Of a stretch of DNA of 64,000 nucleotides, positions 6,870 to 31,079 are shown piece after piece. This DNA comes from an uncultured Actinomycetes bacterium (GTDB lineage: Bacteria > Actinomycetota > Thermoleophilia > Gaiellales > JALYLC01). Made by a program: the position numbers and the translations under genes. The DNA lies in contig CAVUPB010000009.1 in NCBI GenBank assembly GCA_963743275.1, positions 156,189 to 220,188 of the forward strand, in the 5' to 3' direction. How positions within the stretch are numbered: the first letter of the stretch is position 1; each line of letters begins with the position of its first letter. The notes below the pieces were generated by a model that was not told the origin of the DNA, did not search any database, and worked only from the letters and a program-made list of their open reading frames with translations.

Positions 6870-7985
6870 GTGAGCGACGGGGCGATCCGCATCGGCGTGC
6901 TGGGGCTTGGAAGCGTCTTCTACGGCCCGTACATGGCCATGATCGAGCGCCTCGCGAGCGCGGGGCGCGCGCGCGTGACGGCCGTCTACGACGTCGACGA
7001 GGGCAAGCGCCGCGCAGCCGGCCTGCGGCTCGGCCTCGACCCCGGGCTCGCGAGCCCGGAGGCCGTGATCGAGAGCGACGACGTGGACGTCGTGCTCGTG
7101 CTCACGAGCATGAACGCGCACGGCCCGCTCGCGAGCGCGGCGCTCGCGGCCGGCAAGCACGTGCTCGTCGAGAAGCCGATGGCGACGTCGCTCGAGGAGG
7201 CGGCCGCGCTCATGCAGCTGGCGGCCGAGTCGCCGGGGCGCCTGATCTGCGCGCCGCACATCCTGCTCTCGCCGACCTTCCGCGCCGTGCACGCGCACGT
7301 CGCGGCGGGCGACATCGGGCGGCCGCTGCTGGCGCGGGCGCGCTACGGCTGGTCGGGTCCCGATTGGGGGCGCTGGTTCTACGAGCGCGGCGGCGGCGCG
7401 CTCTTCGACCTCGGCGTCTACAACGTGACGGCGCTGTGCGGCCTCTTCGGCCCGGCGCGGCGCGTCACGGCGATGGCCGGCGTCGCGATCCCCGACCGCG
7501 TCGTCGAGGGCGAGACGATGCGCGTGCAGGCCGAGGACAACGCCCACGTCCTGATCGATTTCGGCGAGGCCCGCTTCGCGTCCGTCACGACCGGCTTCAC
7601 GATGCAGAAGTACCGCTCGCCCGCGATCGAGCTGTACGGCTCCGACGGCGTGCTGCAGCTGCTCGGCGACGACTGGGCGCCCGAGGGCTACGAGCTCTGG
7701 CGCAACGCGCGCGGCACCTGGGAGCTGTTCCCCGAGAGCGAGCCCGGCTGGCAGTGGACCGAGGGCCTGCGCCATCTCGTCGACTGCATCGAGCACGGGC
7801 GCGAGCCGGTGACCCGCCCCGAGCACGCTTACCACGCGCTCGAGATCATGCTCGCCGCCAAGGACGCGGCCGCCGACGGCCGCGCGCGCGAGATCGCGAG
7901 CGACTTCCCGCCGCCCGATCTCGCGGCGCTCGAGACGCATTCCGACCGGCGCCGGGTCCACGACCCGCGCTCGGCGCTGATCTAG
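6870..7985 (+). CDS. Gfo/Idh/MocA family oxidoreductase
   Basis: GTG 6870 gives VSDGAIRIGVLGLGSVF (Rossmann) and AGKHVLVEKP. The longer track start 6786 lies inside the palindrome. Confidence 0.8.
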   Translation: MSDGAIRIGVLGLGSVFYGPYMAMIERLASAGRARVTAVYDVDEGKRRAAGLRLGLDPGLASPEAVIESDDVDVVLVLTSMNAHGPLASAALAAGKHVLVEKPMATSLEEAAALMQLAAESPGRLICAPHILLSPTFRAVHAHVAAGDIGRPLLARARYGWSGPDWGRWFYERGGGALFDLGVYNVTALCGLFGPARRVTAMAGVAIPDRVVEGETMRVQAEDNAHVLIDFGEARFASVTTGFTMQKYRSPAIELYGSDGVLQLLGDDWAPEGYELWRNARGTWELFPESEPGWQWTEGLRHLVDCIEHGREPVTRPEHAYHALEIMLAAKDAAADGRAREIASDFPPPDLAALETHSDRRRVHDPRSALI

Positions 7986-13183: not shown

Positions 13184-13202
13184 CAAGAAAATGTTGTTCT
13201 TG
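13184..13202. promoter_or_regulatory. Inverted repeat CAAGAA-N7-TTCTTG in AT-richer divergent region
   Basis: Lies between the small-protein start (13122) and the kinase start, in one of the few low-GC patches. Possible operator or promoter element. Confidence 0.25.
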
Positions 13203-13364
13203 AGGAGCAACGCTCCTGGAATCGCGGCAAGTCCCACGCCCGCTGGAGTGCTACTCCTGCGCGTCAGGCCGAGAGGAGGCGGCTGGGCGAGGCGCCCTGG
13301 CCGTGTGCCAGGGCGGCATGATGGTCCCGTGAGCGTGAGCGTGGCAACGACGGGTCTGCACCGC

Positions 13365-14738
13365 ATGACGGCTGCGGCCCGGCGCGGGGACCCGCGGCTC
13401 GGCGTGGCGGCGAGCGTTGGCGCGGTGGTGCTCGTCACCGGCGTGATCGGCGTGCTCGACGATTTCGTGCCGGTTCTGAGTCTGGGCGCGCTCTACGTCT
13501 TCGCCGTGTTGCCGATCGCGATCTTCTGGGGGCTGGCGTTCGCCGTGGGCGCGTCCGTTGCGTCCATGCTCGTGTTCAACTTCCTCTTCCTCCCGCCCGT
13601 GCACTCGCTCACGATGAGCGACTCGCGCAACTGGCTCGCGCTCGCCGTCTACGTCGTCACGTCCGCGGTCGTGAGCGAGCTGGCGGCGCGCTCGCGGCGG
13701 CGCGCGACCGAATCGGCCCTGCTCGCCGAGATCGCGCGGTCGCTGCTCGAGCGGGGGAGCGTGAACGGCGAGCTCGACCAGATCGCAGCAGGCGCGGCCG
13801 CTGCGCTCGGCGCCGGGGAGGCGCGGATCGAGCTGGGCGAGCCGTCGGAGAGGCTGCGCGCCGACAGCGATGCAACGCCGCTGATCGCGGGGTCGCGGCG
13901 CGTCGGCACGATCACGCTGCGCGGGCCGCGCTGGCCCTACCGCAAGTCGGAGTCGCCGCTCCTGCCGGCGCTCGCGTCGCTCCTGGCTGTGGCGATCGAC
14001 CAGGAGCGGCTCGCCGGCGAGGCGCTCGAGGCCGAGGCGCTGCGGCGCTCGGACGCGCTCAAGACGGCGCTGCTGCGCAGCGTGAGTCATGATCTGCGCT
14101 CGCCGCTGATGACGATCCTCACGTCCGCCTCCGCGCTCGCACGCAGCGATCTGAGCCTCGAGGAGGCGGATCGCAGCGAGTTGCTCGCGGGCATCCTCAG
14201 CGAGGCGCAGCGGCTCGACCGCCTCGTCTCCAACCTGCTCGAGCTCTCGCGCCTGCAGGCCGGCGCGGCCACTCCCGAGCCCCAGGTCTGGGCCGCCGAC
14301 AGCCTCGTCGTCCACGCCCTCAGCAGCCTCGGGCCGAGCGCCGATCGTGTCGACGTGACGCTCTCGGACAAGCCTCTGGTCGTGCGCGTCGACGCCCTCC
14401 AGATCGAGCGCGTGCTCGCCAACCTGATCGAGAACGCGGTCAAGTACTCACCCGACCACGCCGCGCGCGTGCTCGTCAGCTCGACGGGGCGCGAGGCGCT
14501 CGTGCGCGTGGTCGACCACGGGCCGGGCCTGGCGGCCGACGAGATCGAGCGCGTGTTCGAGCCGTTCCAGCGCGGGGCTTCCGGCGACGACGAGCGCGGC
14601 GCGGGCCTTGGCCTGGCGATCGCCCGCGGCTTCGCGGAGGCCAACGGCGGCCGCGTCTGGGCCGAGTCGCGCGCGGGCCAGGGTGCCACCTTCGTGCTCG
14701 CCCTGCCGATCGCCCAGGTCGCGGAGGAGGAGGAATGA
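13365..14738 (+). CDS. Sensor histidine kinase, KdpD C-terminal type (DUF4118 membrane module + HisKA + HATPase), no KdpD-N/USP
   Basis: DUF4118-like helices (LSLGALYVFAVLPIAIFWG, SMLVFNFLFLPPVHSL). H-box SVSHDLRSPL, with ANLIENAVKYS, DHGPGL and GAGLGLAIARG. Start uncertain (ATG 13365 or upstream GTGs). Confidence 0.85.
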   Translation: MTAAARRGDPRLGVAASVGAVVLVTGVIGVLDDFVPVLSLGALYVFAVLPIAIFWGLAFAVGASVASMLVFNFLFLPPVHSLTMSDSRNWLALAVYVVTSAVVSELAARSRRRATESALLAEIARSLLERGSVNGELDQIAAGAAAALGAGEARIELGEPSERLRADSDATPLIAGSRRVGTITLRGPRWPYRKSESPLLPALASLLAVAIDQERLAGEALEAEALRRSDALKTALLRSVSHDLRSPLMTILTSASALARSDLSLEEADRSELLAGILSEAQRLDRLVSNLLELSRLQAGAATPEPQVWAADSLVVHALSSLGPSADRVDVTLSDKPLVVRVDALQIERVLANLIENAVKYSPDHAARVLVSSTGREALVRVVDHGPGLAADEIERVFEPFQRGASGDDERGAGLGLAIARGFAEANGGRVWAESRAGQGATFVLALPIAQVAEEEE

Positions 14739-15445
14739 CGGGGGCACGCATCCTCGTCGTCGACGACGAGCGCCAGATCCTGCGGGCGCTGTCGACGAGC
14801 CTGCGCGCGGCGGGCTATACCGTCGACACGGCCGACACGGCCGCGGGCGCGCTCGCCGCTGCGGCGATGCGGCCGCCGGACGCGGTCATTCTCGACCTCG
14901 TGCTGCCGGACGGCACGGGCACGGAGGTCTGCCGCGAGCTGCGCACGTGGTCGAGCGCACCCGTGATCGTCCTCTCCGCGGTCGGGGACGAGCACGAGAA
15001 AATCGCCGCGCTCGACGCCGGAGCGGACGACTACGTGACGAAGCCGGTCGGCCTCGACGAGCTGCTCGCGCGCCTGCGCGCGACGCTGCGGCGCGCCGGG
15101 CCCTCGCTCGAGCCGGTGATCACCATCGGCGGACTCGTCGTCGATCTCGAGAAGCGCCTCGTCACCGTCGAGGGGCGGGAGGCAAACCTGACGCCACACC
15201 AGTTCGACATCCTGCGCGTCCTTGCTCGCGATCCCGGCAAGCTCGTGACGCATCGCGCGCTGCTGCGCGAGGTCTGGGGGCCGGGCTATGGCACTGAGTC
15301 GAACCTGCTGCACGTCCATGTGTCGCAGTTGCGTCGCCGAATCGAGCCCGATCCGGCACGCCCGCGCTATCTGATCACCGCGCCCGGCGCGGGCTATCGC
15401 CTCGTCGACCCGACGCGGCCGGAGGCGAACCCGGCCCGCGCCTGA
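14735..15445 (+). CDS. OmpR/KdpE-family response regulator
   Basis: ATGA overlap with the kinase. Receiver ILVVDDE...AVILDLVLPDG, winged helix LTPHQFDILRVLARDPGKLVTHRALL...VHVSQLRRRIE. Confidence 0.9.
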   Translation: MTGARILVVDDERQILRALSTSLRAAGYTVDTADTAAGALAAAAMRPPDAVILDLVLPDGTGTEVCRELRTWSSAPVIVLSAVGDEHEKIAALDAGADDYVTKPVGLDELLARLRATLRRAGPSLEPVITIGGLVVDLEKRLVTVEGREANLTPHQFDILRVLARDPGKLVTHRALLREVWGPGYGTESNLLHVHVSQLRRRIEPDPARPRYLITAPGAGYRLVDPTRPEANPARA

Positions 15446-15450: not shown

Positions 15451-16800
15451 TCACGCCGATGGCGCAGTCTCGGTCGCACCCGCGTACGCGGCGGCAAGCG
15501 CGTCGTATCTGCGCCGGACGTCGGCGCGATCGACCTCCTCCGGCACCGTGGCATCGCATGCGCGCAGGATCATGTCGGCCTGCAGCATCAGGACGGGACG
15601 GCGATCGGCGTCCGTCGTCGCCTCCATGATCTTGGCCATCGCACTGAGCTGCCGGATCATGATCGCGGGCATGCCGCCGCTGGCTTGACGGATCTTCTCG
15701 AACGCCCGCTGCACGAGACGGTCGTAACTGGCCTCTGCGGTGATGACGCGCACGAATCCAGCCTGATCGCGCAGAACCCTCGGCGGATCCCACCGAGTCG
15801 CGATCTTGCAGAGGCTGTCGCCCAGCCAGTCCACGCACGTGACTGCCGTGAACGTGTCGTTGACGGCTGGAGACAGCGCGCGGATGGCGATCTCGACGAG
15901 CTGGTCGATGGCGAACGACAGGTCCTGGTTGAGCGTGCGGTGCGGGCCGGTGAAATGCATGCGCTCGAACCCGCGCGCCACGGCAGGCGCTGCCTCGGCG
16001 GGCCAGACCACCGCGAGCGGCGAGCCCTGGGTCATGAAATGGCCAGGGCGATGCACGAGTCTCACCACCGCCTGGTTGCGCGCCGCGATGGCCGTCAACG
16101 TGTCGTAGCGAACGAATTGCAGGTAGCCGCTGGTCGGCGCCATCACCTTCGAGCCGAACTCCTCGAGGCGGTGGCCGACCTCCATCAGCGACGGGCCGTT
16201 CTCGAGCGCTTCGCCTTCAGGGGCCTTTTCGGCGTCGATCGCGCGCGAGAGGTCGTGGGCGATACCCGCGATCACTTGCGGGAGTTGGATCGACAACGTG
16301 ATTCGGTGGATGAAGTAGATCAGCACGCCGAGATCCACGACGACGAGCGTCAGCGCCACGGTGATCGAGAGGTGCGGCACGAAGTCGCCGTGGGAACCGG
16401 GCGAGATCGAGACGAGGGCGAGGATTGCGTAAACGAACGTCGCGACGAACGTGCCGAGCGTCAGTTGCGTGGCGCGGTCGCGAATGAAGTTGCGGAGCAT
16501 GCGCGGCCCGAACTGGGTCGACGCGAGCGTCAGCGTCACGATCATGATCGAGAAGACCACGCCGACGACGGTGATGACCGCGGCCGCGAGCGCCGTCAGA
16601 ATCTGCCGCGCCGCGTCGGCAGTGCCGCTGATCGTCCAGGATGGCAGCGTCAGGTCGCCGCGATAGGCGGCGCGATCGATCGCATAGGTCACGGCGAAGA
16701 GGGCCACCGCGAGGGCCACCTCGAGACCTGGCACCAACCAGAGGTTCGTGCGCAGAGCCTCGCGGCGCCCCTCGGGAACGAGCGGCGGGCGGCGAGTCAT
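15451..16800 (-). CDS. DUF2254 family membrane protein
   Basis: 449 aa with N-terminal TM helices and the ASTQFGPRMLRNFIRD motif typical of DUF2254. Confidence 0.85.
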   Translation of the reverse strand: MTRRPPLVPEGRREALRTNLWLVPGLEVALAVALFAVTYAIDRAAYRGDLTLPSWTISGTADAARQILTALAAAVITVVGVVFSIMIVTLTLASTQFGPRMLRNFIRDRATQLTLGTFVATFVYAILALVSISPGSHGDFVPHLSITVALTLVVVDLGVLIYFIHRITLSIQLPQVIAGIAHDLSRAIDAEKAPEGEALENGPSLMEVGHRLEEFGSKVMAPTSGYLQFVRYDTLTAIAARNQAVVRLVHRPGHFMTQGSPLAVVWPAEAAPAVARGFERMHFTGPHRTLNQDLSFAIDQLVEIAIRALSPAVNDTFTAVTCVDWLGDSLCKIATRWDPPRVLRDQAGFVRVITAEASYDRLVQRAFEKIRQASGGMPAIMIRQLSAMAKIMEATTDADRRPVLMLQADMILRACDATVPEEVDRADVRRRYDALAAAYAGATETAPSA

Positions 16801-16904
16801 CCGGGAACGCGGTGATTGGGGTGCACAGGTGAGTTTCGGCAGGCCGAAGCGGCGCCGACCAGGCTTCCCGGCTCACCGGCGATCAGGATAGACGAGCGCT
16901 ACCA
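16801..16904 (-). promoter_or_regulatory. Conserved promoter/5'-leader module, copy 1 (upstream of DUF2254 gene)
   Basis: Homologous to 30965-31079. Shared blocks are GGTGATYGGGG, TCGGCAGGC, a 24-mer GCCGACCAGGCTTCCCGGC[T/G]CACC (23/24 identical) and AGACGAG..GC(G)TACCA, whose reverse complement TGGTA(G)CGCT is -10-like. Confidence 0.5.
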
Positions 16905-16967
16905 CCGCTCGCGCGATTCGAGGGGCGACCCTGAGGGATCTCCCCCTGGAGCTGCTCTTGCAGCAGT

Positions 16968-16985
16968 TTCTTCAGATCTTCTTAA
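16968..16985 (+). promoter_or_regulatory. Candidate KdpE-type direct repeat TTCTTCA-N4-TTCTTAA (11-bp period)
   Basis: AT-rich direct repeat centred ~65 nt upstream of ATG 17042, comparable in position to the E. coli KdpE site. OmpR-family regulators bind direct repeats at ~11-bp spacing. Confidence 0.3.
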
Positions 16986-17029
16986 GGCTCATCCGCCGAT
17001 CCTTCAGCCACGGTTCCGGAGCGCGGTCG

Positions 17030-17041: not shown

Positions 17042-17125
17042 ATGGCTGACATCGAAGCTCTCGCAATCGCGCTCGCCTGCTTCGCCTTCGCGTTCGCGCT
17101 CCTGTTCGCACTGGAGCGTGTGTGA
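17042..17125 (+). CDS. 27-aa hydrophobic peptide, KdpF-like, translationally coupled to kdpF
   Basis: MADIEALAIALACFAFAFALLFALERV. Its TGA overlaps the kdpF ATG by 1 nt. The ending FALERV echoes the kdpF ending YALLRGERF. GC3 is moderately high. Confidence 0.45.
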   Translation: MADIEALAIALACFAFAFALLFALERV

Positions 17126-17214
17126 TGGCCGCAGGCGACATCTTCGGGCTGATCGTCGCGCTCGGGATATTCATCTACCTCGTGTACGCGCTCCTTCGCG
17201 GGGAGCGGTTCTAG
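17125..17214 (+). CDS. kdpF: K+-transporting ATPase subunit F
   Basis: 29 aa MAAGDIFGLIVALGIFIYLVYALLRGERF (KdpF-type YLVYAL..E.F ending). Its stop abuts the kdpA ATG. Confidence 0.8.
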   Translation: MAAGDIFGLIVALGIFIYLVYALLRGERF

Positions 17215-18921
17215 ATGAGCGCCCAGGGCATCGCACAGATCGTCTTCTACGCCGTCGTCCTGACGGTGCTCGGCTACCCGCTCGGGATCTACATGTCCCG
17301 GATCTACGAGGCGGACACCGCCCCGGGTGGCCGCTTCCTCCGTGCGATCGAGCACCGCTTCCTGCGCTCCGTCGGCGTGCACGACCAGGAAAGCTCCGAG
17401 CAGACCTGGCAGGGCTACGCGAAGACGGTGATGATCTTCTCGGTCGTCTTCTTCGTCGCGCTCTACACGCTGCTGCGGATCCAGGGCCATCTGTTCCTGA
17501 ACCCGGACAAGATGAAGGGCGTCCCGTCGCCGCTCGCGCTGAACACGGCCGCGAGCTTCATCACGAACACCAACTGGCAGTTCTACGGCGGCGAGGCGAC
17601 GATGTCGTACCTCTCGCAGATGGCCGGCCTGGCGGTGCAGAACTTCGTCTCGGCCGGCGTCGGCATGGCCGTGCTCGCGGCCGTCATCCGCGGATTCTCC
17701 CGTCGCAACTCGGGCAGCATCGGCAACTTCTGGCGCGACCTCTACCGCTCGCTCGTCTACATCCTGCTGCCGCTGGCGTTCGTGCTGGCGCTCGTGCTCG
17801 TCTCGCAGGGTGTCGTGCAGACGTTCGACGGACACACGACGGCCACGACGCTCGAAGGGGCACATCAGACGATCACACGCGGCCCGGCTGCGTCGCAGAT
17901 CGCGATCAAGCAACTCGGGACGAACGGCGGCGGGTTCTTCGACTCGAACTCGGCCGTGCCGTTCGAGAACCCGAATGGCCTCACGAACTTCCTCGAGATG
18001 CTGGCCATCCTGCTCATCCCCGTCGCGCAGGTCTTCATGTTCGGGCGCATGGTCAAGGCGATGCGCCAGGCGGTCGCGATCTTCGCGGCCATGTTCGTGC
18101 TGATGGTCGCGGGCATCGGCATCTCGGTGCCGGCCGAGCAGCACGGCTCCGCGGTGCTACGGAGCTCGGGCGTCAACCTCGGCCAGACACAGCAGAGCGG
18201 CGGCAACATGCAGGACAAGGAGGTGCGCTTCGGCATCGCCAACAGCTCCCTCTGGTCGGTCGTGACGACCAACGCCTCCAACGGCTCCGTCAACTCGGGC
18301 CACGATGCCTATACGCCGGTCGGCGGTGCCGTGCCGCTCGTGAACATCTTCTTCGGCGAGGTGATCTGGGGCGGCGTGGGCTCAGGCCTCTACGGCATGT
18401 TCTTCTACGTCATCATCGCGGTCTTCGTGGCCGGTTTGATGGTGGGCCGCACGCCCGAGTACCTGGGCAAGAAGATCGAGGCGCGCGAGATCAAGTACGC
18501 CGCGATCGGGGCGCTGACGGTGCCCACGGTGGCGCTTGCGCTGACGGCGATCAGCATCGTCACGCATGGCGGTCTCGTGTCGCTCTACAACACAGGCGCG
18601 CACGGCTTCACGGAGGCGCTGTACGCCTACACGTCGCAGTCGAACAACAATGGCAGCGCCTTCGCGGGCTATGGCGGCAAGACGTTCTCCGAGCAGCTCG
18701 GCAGCATCGGGTTGTTCCTCGGTCGCTTCGCGCCGCTCCTGGCCGCGCTCGCGGTCGGAGGCTCGCTCGCCGCCAAGAAGACCGTCCCGGCATCGGCCGG
18801 CACATTCCGCACGGACGGCGGGACGTTCACCGTCCTGCTCATCGCCGTGATCATCCTCACCGCCGGACTGATGATCCTCCCGGCTCTCACGCTCGGGCCG
18901 ATCGTGGAGGCACTGCAGTGA
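17215..18921 (+). CDS. kdpA: K+-transporting ATPase subunit A
   Basis: 568 aa polytopic protein with the NTNWQFYGGE and TNGGGFF selectivity-filter-like motifs of KdpA. Confidence 0.95.
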   Translation: MSAQGIAQIVFYAVVLTVLGYPLGIYMSRIYEADTAPGGRFLRAIEHRFLRSVGVHDQESSEQTWQGYAKTVMIFSVVFFVALYTLLRIQGHLFLNPDKMKGVPSPLALNTAASFITNTNWQFYGGEATMSYLSQMAGLAVQNFVSAGVGMAVLAAVIRGFSRRNSGSIGNFWRDLYRSLVYILLPLAFVLALVLVSQGVVQTFDGHTTATTLEGAHQTITRGPAASQIAIKQLGTNGGGFFDSNSAVPFENPNGLTNFLEMLAILLIPVAQVFMFGRMVKAMRQAVAIFAAMFVLMVAGIGISVPAEQHGSAVLRSSGVNLGQTQQSGGNMQDKEVRFGIANSSLWSVVTTNASNGSVNSGHDAYTPVGGAVPLVNIFFGEVIWGGVGSGLYGMFFYVIIAVFVAGLMVGRTPEYLGKKIEAREIKYAAIGALTVPTVALALTAISIVTHGGLVSLYNTGAHGFTEALYAYTSQSNNNGSAFAGYGGKTFSEQLGSIGLFLGRFAPLLAALAVGGSLAAKKTVPASAGTFRTDGGTFTVLLIAVIILTAGLMILPALTLGPIVEALQ

Positions 18922-19502
18922 TCCGCACAACGGTTCGTTCCCTCATCGTCGTGGTCGTCACGACGCTCTTCTTCGGCGGCGTCTATCCGCTCGTCGTCAC
19001 GGGCATCGCCAAGGTCGCGTTCTCACACGAGGCCAACGGCAGCTTGGTCAAGAAGGACGGCAAGATCGTCGGCTCCGAGCTCGACGGCCAGGCCTTCGCC
19101 AAGGCGCAGTACTTCCACTCGCGCCCCTCGGCGACGAGCCCGGCCTACAACCCGGAGTACTCGACGTTCGCCAACCTCGGGCCGACCAGCTCTGCGCTGA
19201 CCGATCAGGTCAAGAAGGAGCTCGCCGGCGTCCTCAAGACCGAGGGCCCGTACAACCCCGGCCTCAAGGCCAGTGACATTCCGGTGGACGCCGTGACGAC
19301 CTCGGGCTCGGGGCTCGACCCCCACATCTCCCCGGCCAACGCGCAGCTCCAGGCGCACCGTGTCGCCGCAGTTCGGCACCTGTCCCTGGCGCGCGTCATG
19401 CAGCTCGTCAGGTCCCACACGGACGGGCGCAGCTTCAGCTTCCTCGGCGAGCCCGGCGTCAACGTGCTCGCTCTCAACCTCGCCCTCGACAAGGAGCACT
19501 AG
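18918..19502 (+). CDS. kdpC: K+-transporting ATPase subunit C
   Basis: GTG 18918 overlaps the kdpA stop (GTGA). [38 protein letters not shown] and [10 protein letters not shown] match E. coli KdpC along its length. Confidence 0.95.
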
Positions 19503-19504
19503 GC

Positions 19505-21565
19505 GTGGCACGCAGCTCCGCATCCATCTTCTCGCGCGACATCGTCATGTCGTCGATCCGCGCGTCCTTCCCCAAGCTCGATCCGCGCCTCCAGATCCGC
19601 AATCCGGTGATGTTCATCGTCGAGATCGGCAGCGTCATCACGACCGCGATCTTCGTCAAGCAGATCGTCCAGGGGGACACGAGCGGACTTTGGTTCGTCG
19701 CGACGATCGCGGTCTGGCTGTGGCTGACCGTGCTCTTCGCGAACTTCGCCGAGGCGATCGCCGAGAGCCGCGGCAAGGCCCAGGCCAGCGCGCTGCGGGC
19801 CACCCGCACGACGACGCTGGCGCACCGCCGGCGCGCCGACGGCAGCCTCGAGGAAGTCCCGGCGCCCGATCTCCAGAGGGGCGACGTGGTCGTCTGCGAC
19901 GCCGGCCAGGTCATCCCGGCGGACGGCGACGTGATCGAGGGCGTCGGCTCGGTGGACGAGTCGGCCATCACCGGGGAATCCGCGCCCGTCATCCGCGAGG
20001 CCGGCGGCGATCGCTCGGCCGTCACCGGCGGCACGCGCCTGCTCTCGGACCAGCTCGTGATCCAGGTCACGCAGGAGCCCGGGCAATCGTTCCTCGACCG
20101 CATGATCGCGCTCGTCGAGGGCGCCGAGCGGCGCAAGACGCCGAACGAGATCGCCCTCAACATCCTGCTCGCAGGGCTCACGATCACGTTCGTGGCGGCG
20201 GTCGTCACGCTGCGGCCGTTCGCCATCTATGCGCACACGCCGACCTCGCAGACCGTCCTGATCGCGCTGCTCGTCGCGCTCATCCCGACGACGATCGGCG
20301 CGCTGCTATCGGCGATCGGCATCGCCGGCATGGATCGCCTCATCCAGCGCAACGTGCTCGCGATGTCGGGCCGAGCGGTCGAGGCATCCGGCGACGTCGA
20401 CGTGCTGCTGCTCGACAAGACCGGCACGATCACGCTCGGCAACCGCCAGGCCACCGAGTTCGTCCCGCTGGACGGCGTCAGCGAGCAGGAGCTCGCCGAG
20501 GCGGCCCAGCTCTCGTCGCTCGCCGACGAGACGCCCGAGGGGCGCTCGATCGTCGTGCTCGCGAAGGAGAGGTACGGGCTGCGCGAGCGCGAGCTCGCGA
20601 GCCACGAGGCGATGTTCGTCCCGTTCTCCGCGACCACGCGCATGTCCGGGGTGGATTTCGACGGCAAGCGCCTGCGCAAGGGCGCGGCCGACTCCGTCAA
20701 GAAGTTCGTCGCCGAGAACGGCGGCTCGGGCGATGCGACACAGCTCGACGCCGAGGTCGAGAAGATCGCGCGTCTCGGCGGGACGCCGCTCGTCGTCGCG
20801 CAGGACAACTTCGTGCTCGGCGTGATCCACCTCAAGGACATCGTCAAGGGCGGCATGAGCGAGCGCTTCGACGAGCTGCGCCGCATGGGCATCCGCACGG
20901 TCATGATCACGGGCGACAACCGCGTGACGGCCGGCGTGATCGCCAGCGAGTCCGGTGTCGACGACTTCCTCGCGGAAGCCACGCCCGAGGCCAAGATGGC
21001 GCTGATCCGCGAGGAGCAGGCCCTGGGGCGGATGGTCGCGATGACGGGCGACGGCACGAACGACGCGCCGGCGCTCGCACAAGCCGATGTCGGCGTCGCC
21101 ATGAACACCGGCACGTCGGCGGCGAAGGAAGCCGGCAACATGGTCGACCTCGACTCCAATCCGACCAAGCTGATCGAGATCGTCGAGGTCGGCAAGCAGT
21201 TGCTGATCACGCGCGGCGCGCTGACCACGTTCTCGATCGCCAACGACGTCGCCAAGTACTTCGCAATCCTGCCGGCGATGTTCGCGTTCACGTATGGCAC
21301 CAACGGAGGGCGCGGGCCGCTCGACTCGCTCAACGTCATGAGCCTGGGCACGCCCAAGAGCGCGATCACGAGCGCGATCATCTTCAACGCGTTGATCATC
21401 CCGGCGCTCGTGCCGCTGGCGCTGAAGGGCGTGAAGTACCGCGCGATCGGCGCGACCGCGCTGCTGCGCCGCAACCTGCTCATCTACGGCGCCGGCGGGG
21501 TGATCCTGCCGTTCGTCGGCATCAAGCTGATCGACCTGATCGTGCACAACCTGCTCGGCGCTTGA
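19505..21565 (+). CDS. kdpB: K+-transporting ATPase subunit B (P-type ATPase)
   Basis: DKTGTIT phosphorylation motif with MITGDN and [11 protein letters not shown]-terminus ...[21 protein letters not shown] is KdpB-like. Confidence 0.95.
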
Positions 21566-21638: not shown

Positions 21639-22349
21639 TCAGGCGGTCTCGCTCTGCCCGTCGAAGAAGCGGTAGCCGAGGCCCGGCTCGGTCACGATCA
21701 GGGCCGGGTGACGCGGATCCTGCTCGATACGGCGGCGCAGTTGCGAGATCTGCACGCGCAGGTTGTCGGCGGCGGCGGCGTCCGGGTCGCCCCAGACCTC
21801 GGCCACGATGGCACGGTGGGTCAACAGCCTTCCGGGGTGACGCATGAAGCACGCGAGCAGCGCGAACTGCGTGCGCGTGAGCTGCACGGGCTCGCCGCGC
21901 ACGCGCGCCGTGTGCTCGGCGAGATCGAGCTGCACCGGGCCTCGCTCCATCCGCGCCGACTCGGCGCGGGCGTCCGCGGCATTGCCATGGCGGAGCGCCA
22001 CGCGCACGCGTGCGAGCAGCTCGCGCACCGAGAACGGCTTCGAGACGTAGTCGTCGGCCCCGAGGTCGAGCGCCTCGACCTTGACGGCGTCCTCGCCCTG
22101 GGCCGAGAGCACGATGATCGGCAGCGCCGGGTACAGCACGCGCACGCGGCGGATGACCTCGAAGCCGCTGACGCCGGGCAGGCCGAGGTCGAGCAGGAGG
22201 AGGTCGAACGCGCCGTTCGTGACGCGTGCGAGCGCATCCTCGCCGGTGAGCGTGGCCGTTACCACGTACCCCTGGGCCTCGAGTGCGATGCGCAGCGCGC
22301 GCAGGACGACCGGCTCGTCGTCGACGAGCAGGATCATCGGTCGCTTCAT
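21639..22349 (-). CDS. kdpE: KdpE response regulator (OmpR family)
   Basis: MKRPMILLVDDEP...LLLLDLGLPG receiver, C-terminal winged helix LTRTQFALLACFMRHPGRLLTHRAIV...LRVQISQLRRRIE. ATG 22349 overlaps the kinase stop (ATGA). Confidence 0.9.
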   Translation of the reverse strand: MKRPMILLVDDEPVVLRALRIALEAQGYVVTATLTGEDALARVTNGAFDLLLLDLGLPGVSGFEVIRRVRVLYPALPIIVLSAQGEDAVKVEALDLGADDYVSKPFSVRELLARVRVALRHGNAADARAESARMERGPVQLDLAEHTARVRGEPVQLTRTQFALLACFMRHPGRLLTHRAIVAEVWGDPDAAAADNLRVQISQLRRRIEQDPRHPALIVTEPGLGYRFFDGQSETA

Positions 22350-23861
22350 GCCGCGAGCGGCAGCTCGACGACGAAGGTCGCGCCGCCGCCCGCTGTGGGC
22401 TCGACGTGGATCGAGCCGCCGTGGGCCTCGACGAACCCTCTGCTGATCGTGAGCCCGAGGCCGGTGCCCATGCTGCTGTCGCGGCCCTTGCGCAGCCGGT
22501 AGTACGGCTCGAAGATGCGCCGGCGCTCGGCCTCGGGCACGCCCGGCCCGTGGTCGACCACCGAGATGCGCAGCGCGGTGCCCGTGCTCGTCGCGTACAG
22601 CCCGATCGCTTCGTCCCGGTCGGCGCGGCTCGCGTTCTCGAGCAGGTTCACGAGCACCTGGCGGATCATCGTCTCGTCGACGTTCACCGGCGGCAGCTCC
22701 GCGACGACGTCGACGTCGACGTACTGGCCTTCGAGCGCCGCCGCCGCGTCGTCGACCGCTGCGTAGAGCAGCTCGTCGACGGGCATCAGCGTGCGCCGGG
22801 GATGCAGCGCGCCGGCCTCGATGCGCGAGAGCTCGAGCATGTTGTCGACCAGCCGCGTGAGCCGGCGGGCCTCGGTCTCGATCCCGCCGATCAGCGCCTC
22901 GCGCTCGTGCTCGGGCACGCTCTCGCGCAGGGCGGAGGCCGATGCGGTGATCGCCGTCAGAGGGGTGCGCAGGTCGTGCGAGACGGACTGCAGGAGCGCG
23001 GTGCGCAAGCGATCCGTCTCCTTGAGCGCCTGCAGCATCACGCCCTCGTGCTCGAGGCGGGCGCGCCCGAGCGCGAGGCCGAGGATCCCGCAGAACGACT
23101 CCAGCACCGCCACCGTCTCGCTGTCGATGCGCCGGGTCCCGGTGTCGGCGGCGAGGTAGCCGAACGTGATGCCGCTGTCGGCGATCGGCAGTGCGAGCAC
23201 GCCGCCCTCGCCGCGCAGCGCGACGAGGGCGGGTCCGTCGGCCGGGCTCATGGTCTGCTCGAGGTGCGCACCCGCGGCGTCGTGCGTGCCCACCCGCTCG
23301 TCGAGCTCCTGACCGCGCACGGCGACGCGCAGCGCGGCGCCGCGCAGGGCGAGGCCCTGCGGTGATGTCGGCCAGCGTCCTGCGCAGCGCGGGCCGCAGG
23401 TCGTCGGTGCGGATCAGGTCGGTCGCCAGCGCCTGCAGCATCTCCATGCGCAGCGCGCGTCGCTTCGCCGCTGCGCTCGCCGACCGGAAGCCGCCCACGT
23501 AGTTGGCGAGGACGACCGCGATCAGCGTGTAGATGATGAAGGCCGCAATGCTCGCGGACGCCTCGATGCGGAACGAGTAGTACGGGTGGGTGAAGAGGAA
23601 GTTGAACGTCAGCGCACTGACGAGCGCGAGCGCGAGCGCGAGGATGCGCCCGCCGTTCGTGGCGATCAGCGGCGGCAGCAGCAGGACGAGCGCGAACGTC
23701 CCGGTGTCGAGGTCGTCGCGCGCGGGCAGCAGCACGGCGACGGCGACGATCAGCATGAACAGCGACGCCGCGCCCGCCAGCGCACCGCGCCAGGCCGCCT
23801 CCTCGTCGAGCTCGGGGAGATGCCGGCGGATCGCAGCGACGGTCTGTGCGCGCGCGCTCAC
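22346..23861 (-). pseudogene. kdpD: KdpD C-terminal half: DUF4118-GAF-HisKA-HATPase kinase, reading frame broken once near 23353
   Basis: Frame A (23861 down) encodes the DUF4118 helices ...LVSALTFNFLFTHPYYSFRIEAS...RTLADITAG. Frame B continues LALRGAALRVAVRGQELDERVG...SVSHDLRTPL...GLGLTISRG to stop 22346. Length is 3n+1, so an extra C in GGGCCTC is implied. The 5' start (GTG 23861) is uncertain. Confidence 0.8.
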
Positions 23862-25136: not shown

Positions 25137-25208
25137 GAAACCCGCACGGCGCGCGCCGTGCATCCGGTAGCCTCGCGCCGTGCCGGCCATCACGTACGAC
25201 GGGTCGGC

Positions 25209-28200
25209 ATGAGCGCGCCCGGGCGCAGCTTCAAGCGCACGCTCGTCGGCCGCCGCATGCCGATGGGCAGCCTCGAGGACGAGCTGCTCCCGCGCTGGGT
25301 CGCGCTCCCGATCTTCGCCTCGGACCCGCTCTCGTCGGTGGCCTACGCGACCGAGGCGGGACTCGTCGTGCTCGTCGCCACCTCGCTGACCTCCCGCGGC
25401 CTGATCGTGCCGATCTCGGCGGTCATCGCGGCGTTGCTGGTGATCGTCGTCCTCTCGTATCGCCAGACGATCTTCGCCTACCCCAACGGGGGCGGCTCGT
25501 ACGTCGTCGCGAAGGAGAACCTCGGCCAGACCGCGGGGCTCGTGGCTGCGGCGTCGCTGCTCACGGACTACGTCCTGACGGCTGCCGTGTCGATCGCGTC
25601 GGGCGTGCTCGCGGTCACCTCGGCGGTTCCCGAGCTCTCGTCGCATGCCGTCGAGCTGAGCCTCGGCGTGCTCGTCGTGCTGGTGCTCGTCAACCTCCGC
25701 GGCGTGCGCGAGTCGGGCTTCGTGTTCGCGCTGCCCACGTACGGCTTCATCATCGCGATCGGCGCCACGATCGCGGTCGGCTTCGTGCGCGGGATGGTCA
25801 GCGGCTGGCCCACTGCGCACGTCCCCGACCCGGCCCAGGCCGGCCTGGCAGGCGGCGTCGGCCTCGTCGTGCTCCTGCGCGCGTTCGCGTCGGGCTGCAG
25901 CGCCCTGACGGGCGTCGAGGCGATCTCGAACGGCGTGACCGCGTTCCGCCGGCCGCAGGCGCGGAACGCCGCGAGCACGCTGATGTCGATGGGCGTGATC
26001 GCCGTCGTGCTGTTCCTCGGCGTCTCGGTCCTGGCCTGGAAGATCGACGCGCGGCCGAGCGGGTCGGTCTCGGTGCTCTCGGAGATCGCTCGCGCCGTGT
26101 TCCCGCCCGGGGGGTCGTCGTTCGGCTACTACGCCGTGCAGGCGACGACGGCCGCGGTGCTCGCGCTCGCCGCCAACACGGCGTTCCAGGGCTTCCCGCG
26201 CCTCGCCGCCCTGCTCGCGAGCGACAGCTTCCTGCCCCGGCAGTTCTCGAACCTCGGCGACCGCCTCGTCTACTCCAACGGCATCCTCGTGCTGGCCCTG
26301 GCGGCCGGCGCGCTCATTGTCGGGTTCCACGCCGACGTGCTCAGCCTGATCCACCTCTACCTGCTGGGCGTGTTCACGGCGTTCACGCTCTCGCAGTTCG
26401 GCATGGTGCGGCACAACTGGAACCGCCGCGCATCCGTCGTCTCGGCGCGTTCGCTCGTCTATCCGATCGCGCTCAACGCCACCGGCGGCCTCCTCACCGG
26501 CCTCGTCGGTGCGGTCGTGATCGCGACGAAGTTCGGCGAGGGCGCGTGGATGGTGATGATCGCGATCCCGACGCTCGTGCTCGGGTTCGTCGTCGTCGGC
26601 CGGCACTACGCCGACGTGCGCACGCGCCTGCGCGACCCGGGGGGCGCCTACGCCGCGGTGCGCGGGCCGGTGGTGCTGTACGTCAGCGCACTCGACGATG
26701 CGACCGCAGCGGCGCTCCGTTACGTGCGCTCGATCGCGGGCGACCGCTACCAGGCGATCCACGTCGCCGATCCCGCGGGCGTGACCGGCATCGCCGAGGC
26801 CTGGCGCGGGTTCAGCGGTGACGGGCCTCCGCTCCTGTCCCTGCCGCGCGAGCGCACGGTCTCGGGCACGGTCGCGCGCCACGTGCGGGAGCTCGAGCAC
26901 GGCCCCGGCGAGGTCACCACGCTGGTCGTGCCGGAGCTGTTCAAGCGCAGGTCGCTGCTCGCGATCGTGCGCGGCCGGACGACGCTCGCCCTGCGTCTGC
27001 GGCTGCAGGGCGAGGAGGACGTCGTGCTCGCCGATGTCCCCGTCGTGGCCGGCTCCACGGGCGTTCCGCGCCCGCGCTCGGGCGAGGGGCGCACCAGCGT
27101 CCTCCTGCCCATCGCCGAGCTCAGCGCCGCATCGCGCCACGCGCTCGGATACGCGCTCGGCCTCGGGAGCGAGCATGTCCTCGGCCTGCACGTCGAGCTC
27201 GGCGCCGACGACGTGTCGCAGACCCGCGCGGCCTGGGCCGCGCGGGCCCTGCCGATCCCGGTCAAGGTCGTGCCGTCGCCCTATCGCGACCTCGGGCAGC
27301 CGCTGCTCGCCGAGATCCGCGCGATCACCGCCGACCCCGACGCGGTCTGCGTGGTCGTCATGCCCGAGATCATCAGCCCGCACCGCTGGCAGCGGATCCT
27401 GCACAACCAGCGGGCGCTGTTCATCAAGCGGCTGCTCCTGTTCGAGGAGCGTGTCGTATTGACGAGCGTGCCCTATCGCCTCCCGGAGGCGGGCGAGGTT
27501 GCGCCCGCGACCCCGGACACGGCGGGCGCACTCGAGCGCGCGCGGGAGTTCGCCGTCCCGAGCGCGCCGCTGCGGTCTCCGGGCATTGCGGTCGAGCGCG
27601 CGGCTCGTGCGCCCGCTGCCCCCGAGCCGCGGATGTCGACCGAGGCGATCTGGCGCGCGTTCGAGGGCTTCGCGGGCTCGCTGGCGCTGCTGGCGGTCAC
27701 GCTCGTCGGTCTGCTGCTGCTGCGCGACCACCTGAGCGCCGAGACGGTTGCGCTCGTCATGCTCCTGCCCCCGCTCGTCGCGGCGCTCTCGGGCCGCGCG
27801 CTCGCGCTCGTGATGGCGGCCTTCGGCGCGCTGCTCTTCAACTTCTTCTTCCTGAAGCCGTACTACTCGCTCTCGATCGAGAGCAGCGACAGCATCGGCG
27901 CCTTTCTCGCGTACGCGTCGGTGGCGATGCTCGTCGCGATCGTCGCGGGGCGCCTGCGGCAGGCGCGGGCCGATGCCGACCGGCGCATCCGCCAGGAGCA
28001 GGTGCTGCACGACGTCGCGCTCGCCCTGCTCGCGGGTGAGACGCGCGAGGATGTCCTGCGCGCGCACCTGCAGCGCCTGGCGGATGCGCTCGGCGTGAGC
28101 GCGGCCGCGACCGTCGACGGCACGCGTGCGATCGTCGCCGGCGATGCCGCGCCGGCCCTGCTGCGCGCCGAGCTGCAGGGCGTCCGCTACCACGGTGCGG

Positions 28201-28373: not shown

Positions 28374-28816
28374 GGACGCGCCAAGCCGGCTTCGATGCGG
28401 CCGAGCGCGAGGCGCGCGGCGGCCAGCTCGCGCGCCAGGAAGTCGGTCTCGGCGCGCATCTCGGCGGCCATGCGCCGGTCCTCCTCGTACTGCCGGCGGT
28501 CGCGGAAGGCCTGGCGGTTCTGGGCCAGGAGGATGAGCGGCGCGGCGTATGCGGCCTGGGTCGAGAACGCGAGGTTGAGCAGGATGAACGGGTAGGGATC
28601 CCAGCGGCCGGCCGCCCAGACCGCGTTGACGCCGATCCAGGCGATCACGAGCGCGGTCTGGATCACGAGGTAGCGCGCCGTGCCGAAATAGCGCGCGATG
28701 CCCTCGGACACGCGCCCGAACGCCTCGGGGTCGTAGTGGGGCGCGACCGCCAGCGACCGCCTCGGCTGATCGAGGCGGCGGTTGCCGGCGACGTGCCAGG
28801 TCACGCGCTTGCGCAT
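28337..28816 (-). CDS. DUF1003 family membrane protein
   Basis: PYPFILLNLAFSTQAAYAAPLILLAQNRQ core motif and a C-terminal coiled-coil-like tail. GAAAGGAG RBS. The 3' end overlaps the convergent KimA-fusion gene by 37 nt. Confidence 0.85.
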   Translation of the reverse strand: MRKRVTWHVAGNRRLDQPRRSLAVAPHYDPEAFGRVSEGIARYFGTARYLVIQTALVIAWIGVNAVWAAGRWDPYPFILLNLAFSTQAAYAAPLILLAQNRQAFRDRRQYEEDRRMAAEMRAETDFLARELAAARLALGRIEAGLARPQGSDEVRVDDT

Positions 28817-29596: not shown

Positions 29597-30964
29597 TCAG
29601 GCGTCCGCCTCTGCGAGCCGCTCGACCTCCTCGATGCCGGCCGGCCGCCCGGCGCGAACCCAGAGCCGTTGGAGCGCCGCCGCGATGACGAGCATGGCGA
29701 CGAGCGAGAGCAGCGGGTAGCCGCGCGCGAGGTTGACGGCCAGCGTGAAGGCCACGGCCGCCGCGCCGAGCAGGTTGACGGCCGCGAGCACGTGCCGGCC
29801 CTCGCGGCGCGAGAACCGCGCAATCGCGGCCAGGCCGGCGAGGAAGCTCACGAACACCGCGACGGCGTAGAACAGGACGAGCTCCTGCTCGAGGCCGCCC
29901 GCGGCCAGGAGCACCGCGGCGGAGACGGCGAGATAGACGCAGACCGACCAGTAGGGCGTGTGATGGCGGTTGGTATGGCCGAGCGCGCGCGGCAGGATGC
30001 CCACGCCCGCGCTCTCGGCGTGGCGCGAGAGCGCCTTGAGCAGGCCCGGGCCCGCCTGGAACGACGAGCTGGCAGCCGCCAGCAGCAGCATCGAGCTGGC
30101 ACCCTGGAAGAGCGCGAAGACGAGTCCGTCGCCGGTGGCGGCGCGCGCGACGTCGGCGATCTGCGTCGAGTCGGCCGAGGGGATGCCGACGTGCAGCCGC
30201 ACGGCGAGCGCTGCGATCCCGATCGTGAGCGCGGCGACGATGACGAACGTCAGCACGAGCGTGCCGCGCGCGAAGCGACGGCGGTCGTCGGCCCCGAGCT
30301 GCCCGAGCTGCCCGATGGCCGTCGCCGGCGCTTCGGTACCCGTTGCCAGGGCCATGGCCACGGGGAACGAGAGCAGCACGGCCAGCGCGGCGGGCCCGGT
30401 ATCGCCGGTCACCCGCGCGTGTCCGCCTCCGCCGGCGGCGTGGACGTAGCCGTGGACGAGCACGACGATCGCGATCGCCACGAACAGCAGGGTCATGGCC
30501 GCGAACACGAGCCGGCCGCCGTGCCCGAACCAGGTCAGCCCCGCCACGAATGCGAGCAGGCCGAGGCCGAGCAGCAGGCGCAGCGGTGCGAGACCCGGGA
30601 GGTAGGCGATCAGTGCGCTCACGGCCGCTGCGATCGAGATCGTGATCGTGAGCACGAAATCGACGATCAGCGCGCCGATCGGCACGAACACCCAGCCGGT
30701 GCCGAAGGCGCGCGCCGCGGCCTCGGGCGAGCCCCCGCCGAGCGGAAAACGCGCAACGAGGTGCCAGTAGTTGACGTCCACGAGCGCGATCACGCCGAGC
30801 ACGAGCAACTGGGTCGGCAGGAGCAGGCCCAGATGCCCGTCGAGCGCGCGCAGCGATGCCTCGATCGTGTAGGCGACGGACGACACCGGGTCGGCCATGA
30901 CCGCGAACGCGAAGCCGACGAAGAGCAGCGCGCGGAACGCGCGCCGGTGGGCCGCGCGCGGCAT
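29597..30964 (-). CDS. APC-superfamily permease, KimA-core-like (no cytoplasmic domain)
   Basis: ADPVSSVAYTIEA motif and ~12 TM helices. Start ATG 30964 is preferred by homology of its upstream region to the DUF2254 leader. Alternative ATG 30991. Track start 31123 is unlikely. Confidence 0.8.
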   Translation of the reverse strand: MPRAAHRRAFRALLFVGFAFAVMADPVSSVAYTIEASLRALDGHLGLLLPTQLLVLGVIALVDVNYWHLVARFPLGGGSPEAAARAFGTGWVFVPIGALIVDFVLTITISIAAAVSALIAYLPGLAPLRLLLGLGLLAFVAGLTWFGHGGRLVFAAMTLLFVAIAIVVLVHGYVHAAGGGGHARVTGDTGPAALAVLLSFPVAMALATGTEAPATAIGQLGQLGADDRRRFARGTLVLTFVIVAALTIGIAALAVRLHVGIPSADSTQIADVARAATGDGLVFALFQGASSMLLLAAASSSFQAGPGLLKALSRHAESAGVGILPRALGHTNRHHTPYWSVCVYLAVSAAVLLAAGGLEQELVLFYAVAVFVSFLAGLAAIARFSRREGRHVLAAVNLLGAAAVAFTLAVNLARGYPLLSLVAMLVIAAALQRLWVRAGRPAGIEEVERLAEADA

Positions 30965-31079
30965 GGTCGAGGTGATCGGGGAGGAGTCCATCGGCAGGCG
31001 TTCGCGCTTGCCGACCAGGCTTCCCGGCGCACCTGCCCGGCCCCGGCACTCGCCGTGGGCAGACGAGATGAGCGTACCA
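30965..31079 (-). promoter_or_regulatory. Conserved promoter/5'-leader module, copy 2 (upstream of APC permease)
   Basis: See 16801-16904. The 24-mer is at 31010-31033, GGTGATCGGGG at 30971-30981 and TCGGCAGGC at 30991-30999. The reverse complement of 31071-31079 gives TGGTACGCT (extended -10-like). Confidence 0.5.

Follow-up and report, generated by a model that had tools for sequence, protein, structure and literature searches.

A near-invariant 24-nucleotide leader element before monovalent-cation transport genes is a candidate cis-acting RNA family of the Actinomycetota

RESULTS AND DISCUSSION

Two genes for unrelated membrane proteins in a 64-kb stretch of contig CAVUPB010000009.1, assembled from an uncultured Thermoleophilia bacterium (the whole stretch is referred to here as the window), are preceded by copies of the same 24-nucleotide (nt) sequence. 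Copy 1 lies 5' of a gene encoding a DUF2254 protein, and copy 2 lies 5' of a gene encoding a KimA-like potassium permease (Table 1). We propose that both sites probably belong to an uncatalogued family of cis-acting RNAs in 5' untranslated regions (5' UTRs) of the Actinomycetota, which would act as a translation-initiation switch with Na+/K+ status as its likely signal. We have good, though not full, confidence that the element regulates in cis at the RNA level; that it is a riboswitch sensing a cation directly is a more tentative proposal.

In the proposed architecture, the element would begin at or near the transcription start with a near-invariant 24-nt core, GGUG-N-GCCGGGAAG-N-CUGGUCGGC, followed by a variable insert and a 3' arm (CCGACC; GCCGA in the window) just before the ribosome-binding region. 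Two folds could form from these parts. Fold A would be a local 5' hairpin pairing G6-G10 with U20-C24, flanked by positions 5 and 25. In fold B, the closed form, G18-C24 would pair with the 3' arm (helix P2), and the freed G1-G14 would pair with the Shine-Dalgarno (SD) or start-codon sequence. Because the local hairpin and P2 both use U20-C24, they are mutually exclusive, which gives the element the anatomy of a switch. We infer that exchange between the folds would set ribosome access and that a cellular signal would shift the balance, most likely monovalent-cation status (an excess of Na+ or Li+, or the Na+/K+ balance) sensed directly by the RNA.

Two copies of one element in the window

The 24-mer GGTG[A/C]GCCGGGAAGCCTGGTCGGC occurs at positions 16854-16877 and 31010-31033, both times on the minus strand and with 23 of 24 nucleotides identical (copy 1, minus strand 16877-16854, GGTGAGCCGGGAAGCCTGGTCGGC; copy 2, 31033-31010, GGTGCGCCGGGAAGCCTGGTCGGC). 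These two matches in the 64 kb compare with 0.00 expected from 100 dinucleotide shuffles. A covariance model built only from the copies of other genomes (R1) found exactly these two sites in the window, at 34.8 bits for copy 2 and 33.5 bits for copy 1 (E ~1e-7 for both), and the next-best score was 12.7 bits. Both cores have 0 mismatches to the family core, lie in sense orientation, and are 5' of an open reading frame (ORF).

An initial annotation, made from the letters of the window, had described the 24-mer as one of four blocks shared by the two upstream regions, and all four are present where it placed them. The blocks map onto parts of one RNA architecture, of which the 24-mer is the conserved core. 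The block GGTGATYGGGG (GGTGATTGGGG at 16811-16821 and GGTGATCGGGG at 30971-30981), which reads CCCCRAUCACC in the RNA, is complementary to the 5' end of the core and stands where a ribosome-binding site would be expected; TCGGCAGGC (16836-16844 and 30991-30999) is the 3' arm of the hairpin; and AGACGAG..GC(G)TACCA (16890-16904 and 31061-31079) is promoter proximal. The spacer hairpins reported in the initial annotation do differ in sequence in their inner parts, and they keep their pairing. Outside the shared blocks, pairwise alignment of the two upstream regions found nothing alignable. As the CCCCRAUCACC and promoter-proximal blocks are common only to the two window copies (a similar AAUCACC is found in loci L098 and L101), the two window leaders are closer to each other than to the wider family. 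Their P2 arms (GCCGA and UGCCGA) are a shifted variant of the consensus CCGACC and pair with U20-C24 and U20-A25, respectively. The C-rich stretch before each window AUG (16798-16821 and 30962-30981) contains AUCACC (GAUCACCUC in copy 2), which presumably resembles the 3' end of 16S rRNA.

The two downstream genes are a DUF2254 gene and an APC-family permease gene, unrelated to each other as first described. The permease ORF (29597-30964, minus strand) had no match in Pfam or NCBIfam; its assignment comes from a structural relative (Table 1), and KimA-like homologues also lie 3' of the element in loci L077 and L112. The conclusion that the blocks are a shared cis-element or structured leader, and not a gene duplication, is supported and is strengthened by related genomes. 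We also considered the element as coding sequence and rejected this reading: the ORF through copy 2 (from TTG 31123) is merely an open frame, homologous permeases begin at the MPR... methionine, and the element copies lie at varying distances and in varying frames, which argues against a coding function.

A family spread across the Actinomycetota

Three DUF2254 orthologues fetched by protein (83, 74, and 69% identity) carry the same 24-mer, with a difference at position 15 only, in leaders that are otherwise unalignable around the core. A scan of one genome per species for exact matches to the query GGTGNGCCGGGAAGNCTGGTCGG returned at least 120 loci, and 118 of the 120 matches listed are titled Actinomycetota; the remaining two are one unclassified metagenome-assembled genome and one 3-kb contig binned as Burkholderiales. 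Taxa among the matches listed include Streptomyces, Nocardia, Mycobacterium/Mycolicibacterium, Amycolatopsis, Arthrobacter, Microbacterium, Frankia, Acidimicrobiia, and Solirubrobacterales. The initial description of a module of two genes is thus right about the sharing and too narrow about its scope, which is not purely local.

Since the genome scan demanded an exact match, we made an unbiased test with 80 DUF2254 loci retrieved from metagenomes by protein similarity only (62 to 72% identity). The core was exact in 61 of these loci, had one mismatch in 5, and had two in 2 (68 of 80 with at most two mismatches); of the others, 3 had no upstream DNA and approximately 9 lacked the element. Flanks of the core were unalignable among the 80 loci, and the identical core stands upstream of DUF2254 orthologues at 62 to 83% protein identity. 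Few core variants were seen: A or G in place of U3, U in place of C7 or of C24, and one double change, G19U with C21U (L135/L141). Position 15 can be any base (U in 113 copies, C in 54, A in 22, and G in 5), and at position 5 DUF2254 leaders have A, whereas the other leaders have U or C.

The cores of two DUF2254 loci, L144 (~2431-2454) and L162 (~2432-2455), are badly degraded, with 6 to 7 mismatches, and may be decaying copies or assembly errors; past its degraded core, the L144 leader closely matches the leader of L142, whose core is intact. Two copies before different genes occur within each of the 8-kb loci L040, L049, L058, L061, L064, L094, L101, and L123 (divergently in L040, at 3654- and 3802+), which suggests local clustering of the regulon, as in the window.

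The initial annotation had itself raised the prospect of a dispersed repeat without positional bias. That the shared blocks are a REP- or MITE-like repeat, or a chance or recombinational similarity without regulatory meaning, is scarcely credible. Short repeats are plentiful in GC-rich genomes, and the two copies lie 14 kb apart in one window. However, there are only two copies in 64 kb, in the same orientation and directly before start codons; across ~120 genomes (among the matches listed), copies lie in sense orientation before ORFs and are associated with -10 boxes and with a single functional class of genes; and neither terminal repeats nor, among the matches examined, intragenic copies were found.

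Probable position at the mRNA 5' end and a cation-transport regulon

A TAnnnT hexamer ends 6 to 9 nt before G1 in 70% of 194 nonredundant copies, compared with a background of 0.4%, and the spacer between the hexamer and G1 measures 7 nt in 81 copies and 8 nt in 46. From this arrangement, the core would normally form the first 24 nt of the mRNA. Approximately 30% of the family copies have no adjoining TAnnnT box, copy 2 included. An extended -10 element had been suggested for both window copies: TGGTACGCT remains a good candidate in copy 2, but TGGTAGCGCT is not the family-typical box of copy 1, which is TATCCT (16885-16890), 7 nt before G1. Because the box nearest to copy 2 lies ~37 nt from G1, its leader would carry ~30 extra 5' nt, able to form a hairpin of their own.

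Most copies are followed by a same-strand ORF that has the codon bias expected from GC at third codon positions (GC3) and starts 25 to 130 nt downstream; for ~10 of 129 copies, the ORF call was only more distant (>150 nt) or doubtful. Pfam searches of the 129 downstream ORFs identified NhaA (PF06965) in 62, Na_H_Exchanger in 17, DUF2254 in 11, and a CBS pair in 6. Rarer matches were ABC_tran (3, NatA-like), PPDK_N (2), and CitMHS/NhaB-like (2), with SulP/STAS (L070), Mrp, Na_Ca_ex, and TrkH found once each. Only NhaA and Na_H_Exchanger are commoner than DUF2254 among the gene classes behind the element. With a regulon of NhaA and other Na+/H+ exchangers, a NatA-like ABC exporter, Mrp, a Na+/Ca2+ exchanger, TrkH, KimA-like permeases, and DUF2254, a monovalent-cation signal is the most likely one. 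Judging from these genes, an excess of Na+ or Li+, or a high ratio of Na+ to K+, would raise expression and so induce Na+ exporters and K+ importers together.

Some subgroups have additional upstream features. The stand-alone CBS copies (L011, L023, L026, L049, L058, L067, and L094) share a box, TTTACGGCATCTTTAC, located 20 to 25 nt upstream of the core, and several of them have GGAG in place of GGUG at core positions 1-4. In Streptomyces nhaA copies, including L014, L028, L032, L039, L064, and L076, a AACGCGTCAA-like box ~15 to 30 nt upstream of the core takes the place of the adjacent -10 hexamer, a sign that these copies may use another promoter or carry an additional protein site. In L012, a match to the Rfam model of the actinobacterial small RNA (sRNA) Ms_IGR-5 (7551-7801, plus strand; 83.5 bits) lies ~50 nt past the element-bearing nhaA.

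Evidence for a function as RNA

A second conserved block, CCGACC, is complementary to G18-G23 (GGUCGG) of the core and lies mostly 0 to 4 nt before the SD. The pentamer CGACC is present in 43 of 89 leaders, compared with a median of ~4 for pentamers of the same composition. In 25% of leaders it stands no more than 4 nt from the SD; for the 570 other SDs of these loci, the figure is 1.4% (p=3e-10). The insert between the P2 arms ranges from 3 to ~60 nt and often contains a hairpin of its own. In 106 copies aligned by model R1, P2 is 84.7% paired, versus 24 to 60% for slid registers, and it was predicted independently by RNAalifold. Changes in P2 are one-sided only, from G-C to G-U.

Positions 5 and 25, which flank the complementary segments GCCGG (6-10) and UCGGC (20-24), covary (Fisher 2e-20 for the U/C by G/A table), with counts of 64 for U:G, 50 for A:A, 35 for C:A, 27 for A:G, 9 for U:A, 4 for U:C, and 0 each for C:G and A:U. 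When mapped onto a tree of 48 NhaA proteins, the states are interspersed and require 13 or more independent changes. This pattern is a G.U to A.C wobble-type exchange in which Watson-Crick pairs are avoided, and both window copies obey the non-Watson-Crick rule (A:G in copy 1 and C:A in copy 2). Such avoidance fits an RNA hairpin of capped stability and not a DNA palindrome; likewise, the invariant G10.U20 within the dyad GCCGG/UCGGC would be a mismatch if the dyad were read as a DNA site. A mutual-information scan of N5, N15, and N25 against positions around the 3' arm found no further covariation.

The 5' end of the core has candidate partners as well. CUCAYC, which is complementary to GGUGAG, is present in 20 of 80 A5 leaders (25%) compared with 1 of 37 C5 and 4 of 77 U5 leaders (3 to 5%). 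The 5' end covaries with its partner between L147, where U3.G is formed with CUCGCU, and L168, where A3-U is formed with CUCUCU. A subgroup of the DUF2254 leaders has GGUGAGCC paired with GGCUCAUC, a segment immediately 5' of the AUG, and this pairing covers the SD.

The initial annotation had offered an operator or a structured leader; the structured leader is supported by these data, and the operator has become less likely. As an operator, the 24-mer would be a DNA site at +1 to +24, bound by a transcription factor conserved among actinobacteria that either blocks RNA polymerase or activates it, with the RNA folds incidental. Such a site would account for the fixed distance between the core and the -10 box, for conservation by sequence instead of by compensatory change, for the imperfect dyad GCCGG-N9-TCGGC within the core, and for the weakness of the thermodynamic tests of ribosome-binding-site masking described below. 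We nevertheless consider an operator improbable. The CCGACC block, the complement of GGTCGG, lies at a variable distance (3 to 60 nt) yet is tied to the SD; at positions 5 and 25, U:G and C:A prevail and the Watson-Crick combinations C:G and A:T are absent, whereas a palindromic operator would show the reverse; an invariant G.T is present within the dyad; and the inner hairpins of the window copies differ in sequence and keep their pairing. Furthermore, the promoter distance is not obligatory, as ~30% of copies, including copy 2, have no adjoining -10 box, and transcription-factor sites do not usually keep 21 of 24 bases nearly unchanged throughout a phylum.

Predicted folds and points against a translational switch

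The minimum-free-energy fold predicted for copy 1 (-34.3 kcal/mol; RNAfold) contains the pairing next to the ATG that the initial annotation had pointed out (CCGGGAA with UUCCCGG), here C7-A13 with UUCCCGG (16807-16801). In the same fold, G1-G6 pairs with CUCGCC (16796-16791, codons 2-4), the AUG lies in an internal loop, and P2 is formed as UCGGC:GCCGA enclosing a CCG-CUU-CGG hairpin, so that the start codon is predicted to be buried. The duplex of the UUCCCGG/CUCGCC region with the core was computed at -21.6 kcal/mol, versus -16.7 kcal/mol for shuffled partners. In the fold predicted for copy 2, P2 is UCGGCA:UGCCGA enclosing GCG-CGAA-CGC, and CCCCGAUCACC, which precedes the AUG by 6 nt, forms pairs with GGUG and GGG.

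Several points weigh against our proposal of a translational switch. The local hairpin (~-7 kcal/mol) lies 8 to 13 kcal/mol above the closed fold; therefore, if functional, it needs a stabilizer such as a ligand, tertiary contacts, a protein, or folding kinetics. The 5' arms of the core are invariant, and two-sided compensatory changes number 0 pairs in any helix. Because these arms never vary, support comes from one-sided variation, block enrichment, and the unusual 5:25 pattern. By partition function, the energy for opening the SD was 4.17 kcal/mol for native leaders versus 3.74 kcal/mol with shuffled cores (p=0.05), which is marginal, and duplexes of the first 14 nt with DUF2254 leaders (RNAduplex) equaled those with shuffled partners (-16.0 and -16.0 kcal/mol). 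TTCCC near starts is only modestly enriched, partly reflecting coding for MFP. Both window genes are without a recognizable SD, unlike most family members. In addition, the GC-rich core permits rival pairings in modeling (C7-G11 with N15-G19; G14-C16 with G22-C24), and the fold is not settled. Finally, these data are also compatible with a partner that is a protein or an sRNA.

A further possibility is that the core forms a K+-dependent, two-tetrad RNA G-quadruplex (G1G2, G9G10, G18G19, and G22G23) that competes with the hairpins and thereby senses the K+/Na+ ratio. There are four invariant GG tracts, spaced by 6, 7, and 2 nt, the single-base variants (U3, N5, C7, N15, and C24) all fall outside them, and the regulon concerns K+ and Na+. 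We regard this model as very improbable, since a quadruplex would not require conserved loop bases, yet here the bases that would be loops are no less invariant than the G tracts, and since the 5:25 covariation and the CCGACC arm would go unexplained. The G19U and C21U change in L135/L141, the only variant to do so, breaks a GG tract, and two-tetrad quadruplexes with loops of 6 to 7 nt are expected to be unstable.

Comparison with known riboswitch classes

The initial annotation had recognized no known riboswitch consensus in the leaders, and searches with cmscan agree. At gathering score, no relevant Rfam 15 family was found on the window or on ~18 to 19 other loci. At E<=10, the three leader regions searched, both window leaders among them, gave only chance matches, such as CRISPR-DR29 and HOXA11-AS1 with E ~1. 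The models for DUF1646 (Na+-I), nhaA-I, nhaA-II, and ydaO matched neither the window copies nor the nhaA-linked copies (L012, L019, L027, and L036). We found no description of the element sequence or of an actinobacterial antiporter riboswitch in the searchable literature, and publication outside it is possible.

By analogy, the element resembles alkali-ion riboswitches in regulon and placement and is a member of none of them. The Na+-I and Li+ riboswitches came to light through the same signature, many nonhomologous cation transporters behind a single element (PMC5737381, PMC9337991, and PMC9646797). The Na+-I riboswitch (DUF1646 motif; White et al. 2022, PMC9337991) is likewise a 5'-UTR element before diverse, nonhomologous genes for Na+ extrusion or use, including those for NhaA-like antiporters, a DUF protein, ABC/ATPase exporters, and kefB-annotated genes (PMC9337991). 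It also has invariant unpaired bases, and an ON-switch logic would be physiologically sensible. The presence of our element upstream of diverse Na+-transport genes among the 129 ORFs is a functional resemblance to Na+-I only and does not indicate membership: there is no match in sequence or structure and none in Rfam at E<=10. Whereas Na+-I has two extended hairpins and usually controls intrinsic terminators, the element is a 24-nt core at the extreme 5' end that abuts the SD, with no terminator. Na+-I is reported from Firmicutes, Proteobacteria, Acidobacteria, and Verrucomicrobia (PMC9337991), whereas the element, among the matches listed, is all but confined to the Actinomycetota.

The Li+-I and Li+-II riboswitches (nhaA-I and nhaA-II; PMC9646797) share with the element nhaA as the commonest downstream gene (62 of 129 here) and a candidate role in cation detoxification at an antiporter mRNA. 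The representatives assayed came from Proteobacteria (Azorhizobium, Pseudomonas, and Brevundimonas) (PMC9646797). However, neither Rfam model matched, even for copies directly before nhaA, and the Li+ classes are never linked to nhaB, whereas the element precedes NhaB/CitMHS-like, CPA1, K+ uptake, and DUF2254 genes. The cyclic di-AMP (c-di-AMP) riboswitch (ydaO/kimA; PMC9337991 and PMC6488665) regulates K+ and osmotic genes, kimA and kdp among them, in other phyla, and the window copies precede a KimA-like gene and a gene beside kdpFACB. It is a pseudosymmetric aptamer of ~130 nt with its own Rfam model, ydaO-yuaA, which does not match the element, and the regulon here consists mainly of Na+/H+ antiporters, which are not typical c-di-AMP riboswitch targets. 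The dauA motif (Narunsky et al. 2024, PMC11109978) is an actinobacterial 5'-UTR candidate before SulP/STAS genes whose fold includes the SD, and one element copy (L070) also precedes a SulP/STAS gene. However, the dauA motif is described as a three-stem junction with 57 representatives from Streptomyces and one gene class only (PMC11109978); the two are set apart by description only, and the far wider range of taxa and genes of the element argues against identity.

The element could also work as an RNA that senses no ligand, being bound by a protein (for example, the coregulated stand-alone CBS-pair protein) or by an sRNA, or serving as a passive 5' stabilizer or constitutive mask of the ribosome-binding site. 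We hold this to be unlikely, albeit a serious contender. It draws on the same RNA-level evidence as our proposal, and an aptamer of this kind would be very small; moreover, stand-alone CBS genes are themselves behind the element (6 of 129), as autoregulation would predict. What tells against it is the combination of a regulon of many nonhomologous ion transporters with invariant loop or bulge bases (A12, A13, G14, C16, and U17), a pattern that is that of the Na+-I, Li+-I, and Li+-II riboswitches (PMC9337991 and PMC9646797). No candidate partner is encoded consistently nearby, although no systematic search was made, and a passive stabilizer would need neither phylum-wide invariance nor two competing helices.

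Carried further, the proposal of an RNA switch leads to a tentative one, which we consider possible but doubtful: the ~25-nt core may represent a novel riboswitch class of unusually small size and, for the Actinomycetota (including Streptomyces, Nocardia, and mycobacteria), the first known riboswitch for alkali cations. It would directly sense Na+/Li+ or the Na+/K+ balance and switch Na+ exporters and K+ importers together, and its core might then be a capped, wobble-flanked hairpin with an invariant GAAG-N-CUGG loop.

Genomic neighborhood of the window copies

From its gene content, the region of the window around the two copies is a K+-homeostasis island (Table 1). The kdp operon (17125-21565, plus strand) has the gene order kdpF-kdpA-kdpC-kdpB, where the usual order is kdpFABC, and kdpF near the element has a GGGAG SD. 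The only AT-richer patch in the DUF2254-kdpF intergenic region (16948-16990), with repeated TCTTC (TTTCTTCAGATCTTCTTAAGG), may be the kdp promoter or a KdpE-binding region. Between the two element copies, the 1071-amino-acid protein (25158-28373, plus strand) is an unusual fusion of a weak N-terminal match to K_trans (KUP-like) with DUF4118, a membrane domain typical of KdpD. We rejected kdp linkage of DUF2254 as a general rule, as kdpA is near DUF2254 in only 9 of 83 loci. The AlphaFold model of the DUF2254 protein (predicted local distance difference test score, 83.6) is mostly helical with a small beta domain; no fold in the PDB matched it significantly (best E=0.024, TM-score 0.22), so the fold gives no functional clue.

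Table 1. Coordinates of the element copies, their leaders, and neighboring genes in the 64-kb window
Feature	Coordinates	Strand	Support or remark
DUF2254 membrane protein (gene 1)	15451..16800	-	Pfam PF10011, E=6e-116
KimA-like APC-family K+ permease (gene 2)	29597..30964, AUG 30962-30964	-	PDB 6s3k KimA, E=4e-16
Copy 1, -10-like hexamer TATCCT	16885..16890	-	7 nt upstream of G1; read from sequence
Copy 1, 24-nt core GGUGAGCCGGGAAGCCUGGUCGGC	16854..16877 (G1=16877, C24=16854)	-	33.5 bits
Copy 1, variable insert, inner hairpin CCG-CUU-CGG, and 3' arm GCCGA (16836-16840)	16836..16853	-	Arm pairs U20-C24 (P2)
Copy 1, CUCACC	16828..16833	-	Complement of G1-G6 (GGUGAG); alternative partner for 5' end
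Copy 1, CCCCAAUCACC, common to copy 2	16811..16821	-	Complementary to core GGUGA and GGG; at SD place, SD absent
Copy 1, UUCCCGG (16801-16807), AUG (16798-16800), CUCGCC (16791-16796)	16791..16807	-	Predicted pairing with C7-A13 and G1-G6
Copy 2, extended -10-like box TGGTACGCT	31071..31079	-	~37 nt upstream of G1; from sequence
Copy 2, putative extra 5' hairpin of leader	31034-31060	-	Implied by distant -10-like box; sequence
Copy 2, 24-nt core GGUGCGCCGGGAAGCCUGGUCGGC	31010..31033 (G1=31033)	-	34.8 bits
Copy 2, variable insert, inner hairpin GCG-CGAA-CGC, and 3' arm UGCCGA (30991-30996)	30991..31009	-	Arm pairs U20-A25 (P2)
Copy 2, CCCCGAUCACC	30971..30981	-	6 nt before AUG; pairs core GGUG and GGG in predicted fold
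KdpD-like histidine kinase	13191-14738		
KdpE	14735-15445		
kdpF	17125-17214	+	Divergent from DUF2254 gene
kdpA	17215-18921	+	
kdpC	18936-19502	+	
P-type ATPase kdpB	19505-21565	+	
Second histidine kinase	22346-23320	-	
1071-amino-acid protein	25158-28373	+	K_trans-like and DUF4118 regions
DUF1003	28337-28816	-	Followed by KimA-like gene

Implications for cation homeostasis in the Actinomycetota

To our knowledge, how Na+, Li+, or K+ is sensed for antiporter control in the Actinomycetota is largely unknown, and the known Na+ and Li+ riboswitch classes come from other phyla. A near-invariant 24-nt RNA at the 5' end of nhaA and of more than 10 other transporter gene classes is a directly testable sensor candidate. 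If our proposal is true, the DUF2254 gene beside kdpFACB and the gene for the KimA-like permease would be linked into one posttranscriptional circuit within a K+ island. The element might also serve as a compact natural switch for high-GC biotechnology hosts. For DUF2254, a family without an assigned function or a relative of solved structure, the regulon provides a functional hint, and DUF2254 proteins and KimA-like permeases would be assigned by association to monovalent-cation homeostasis.

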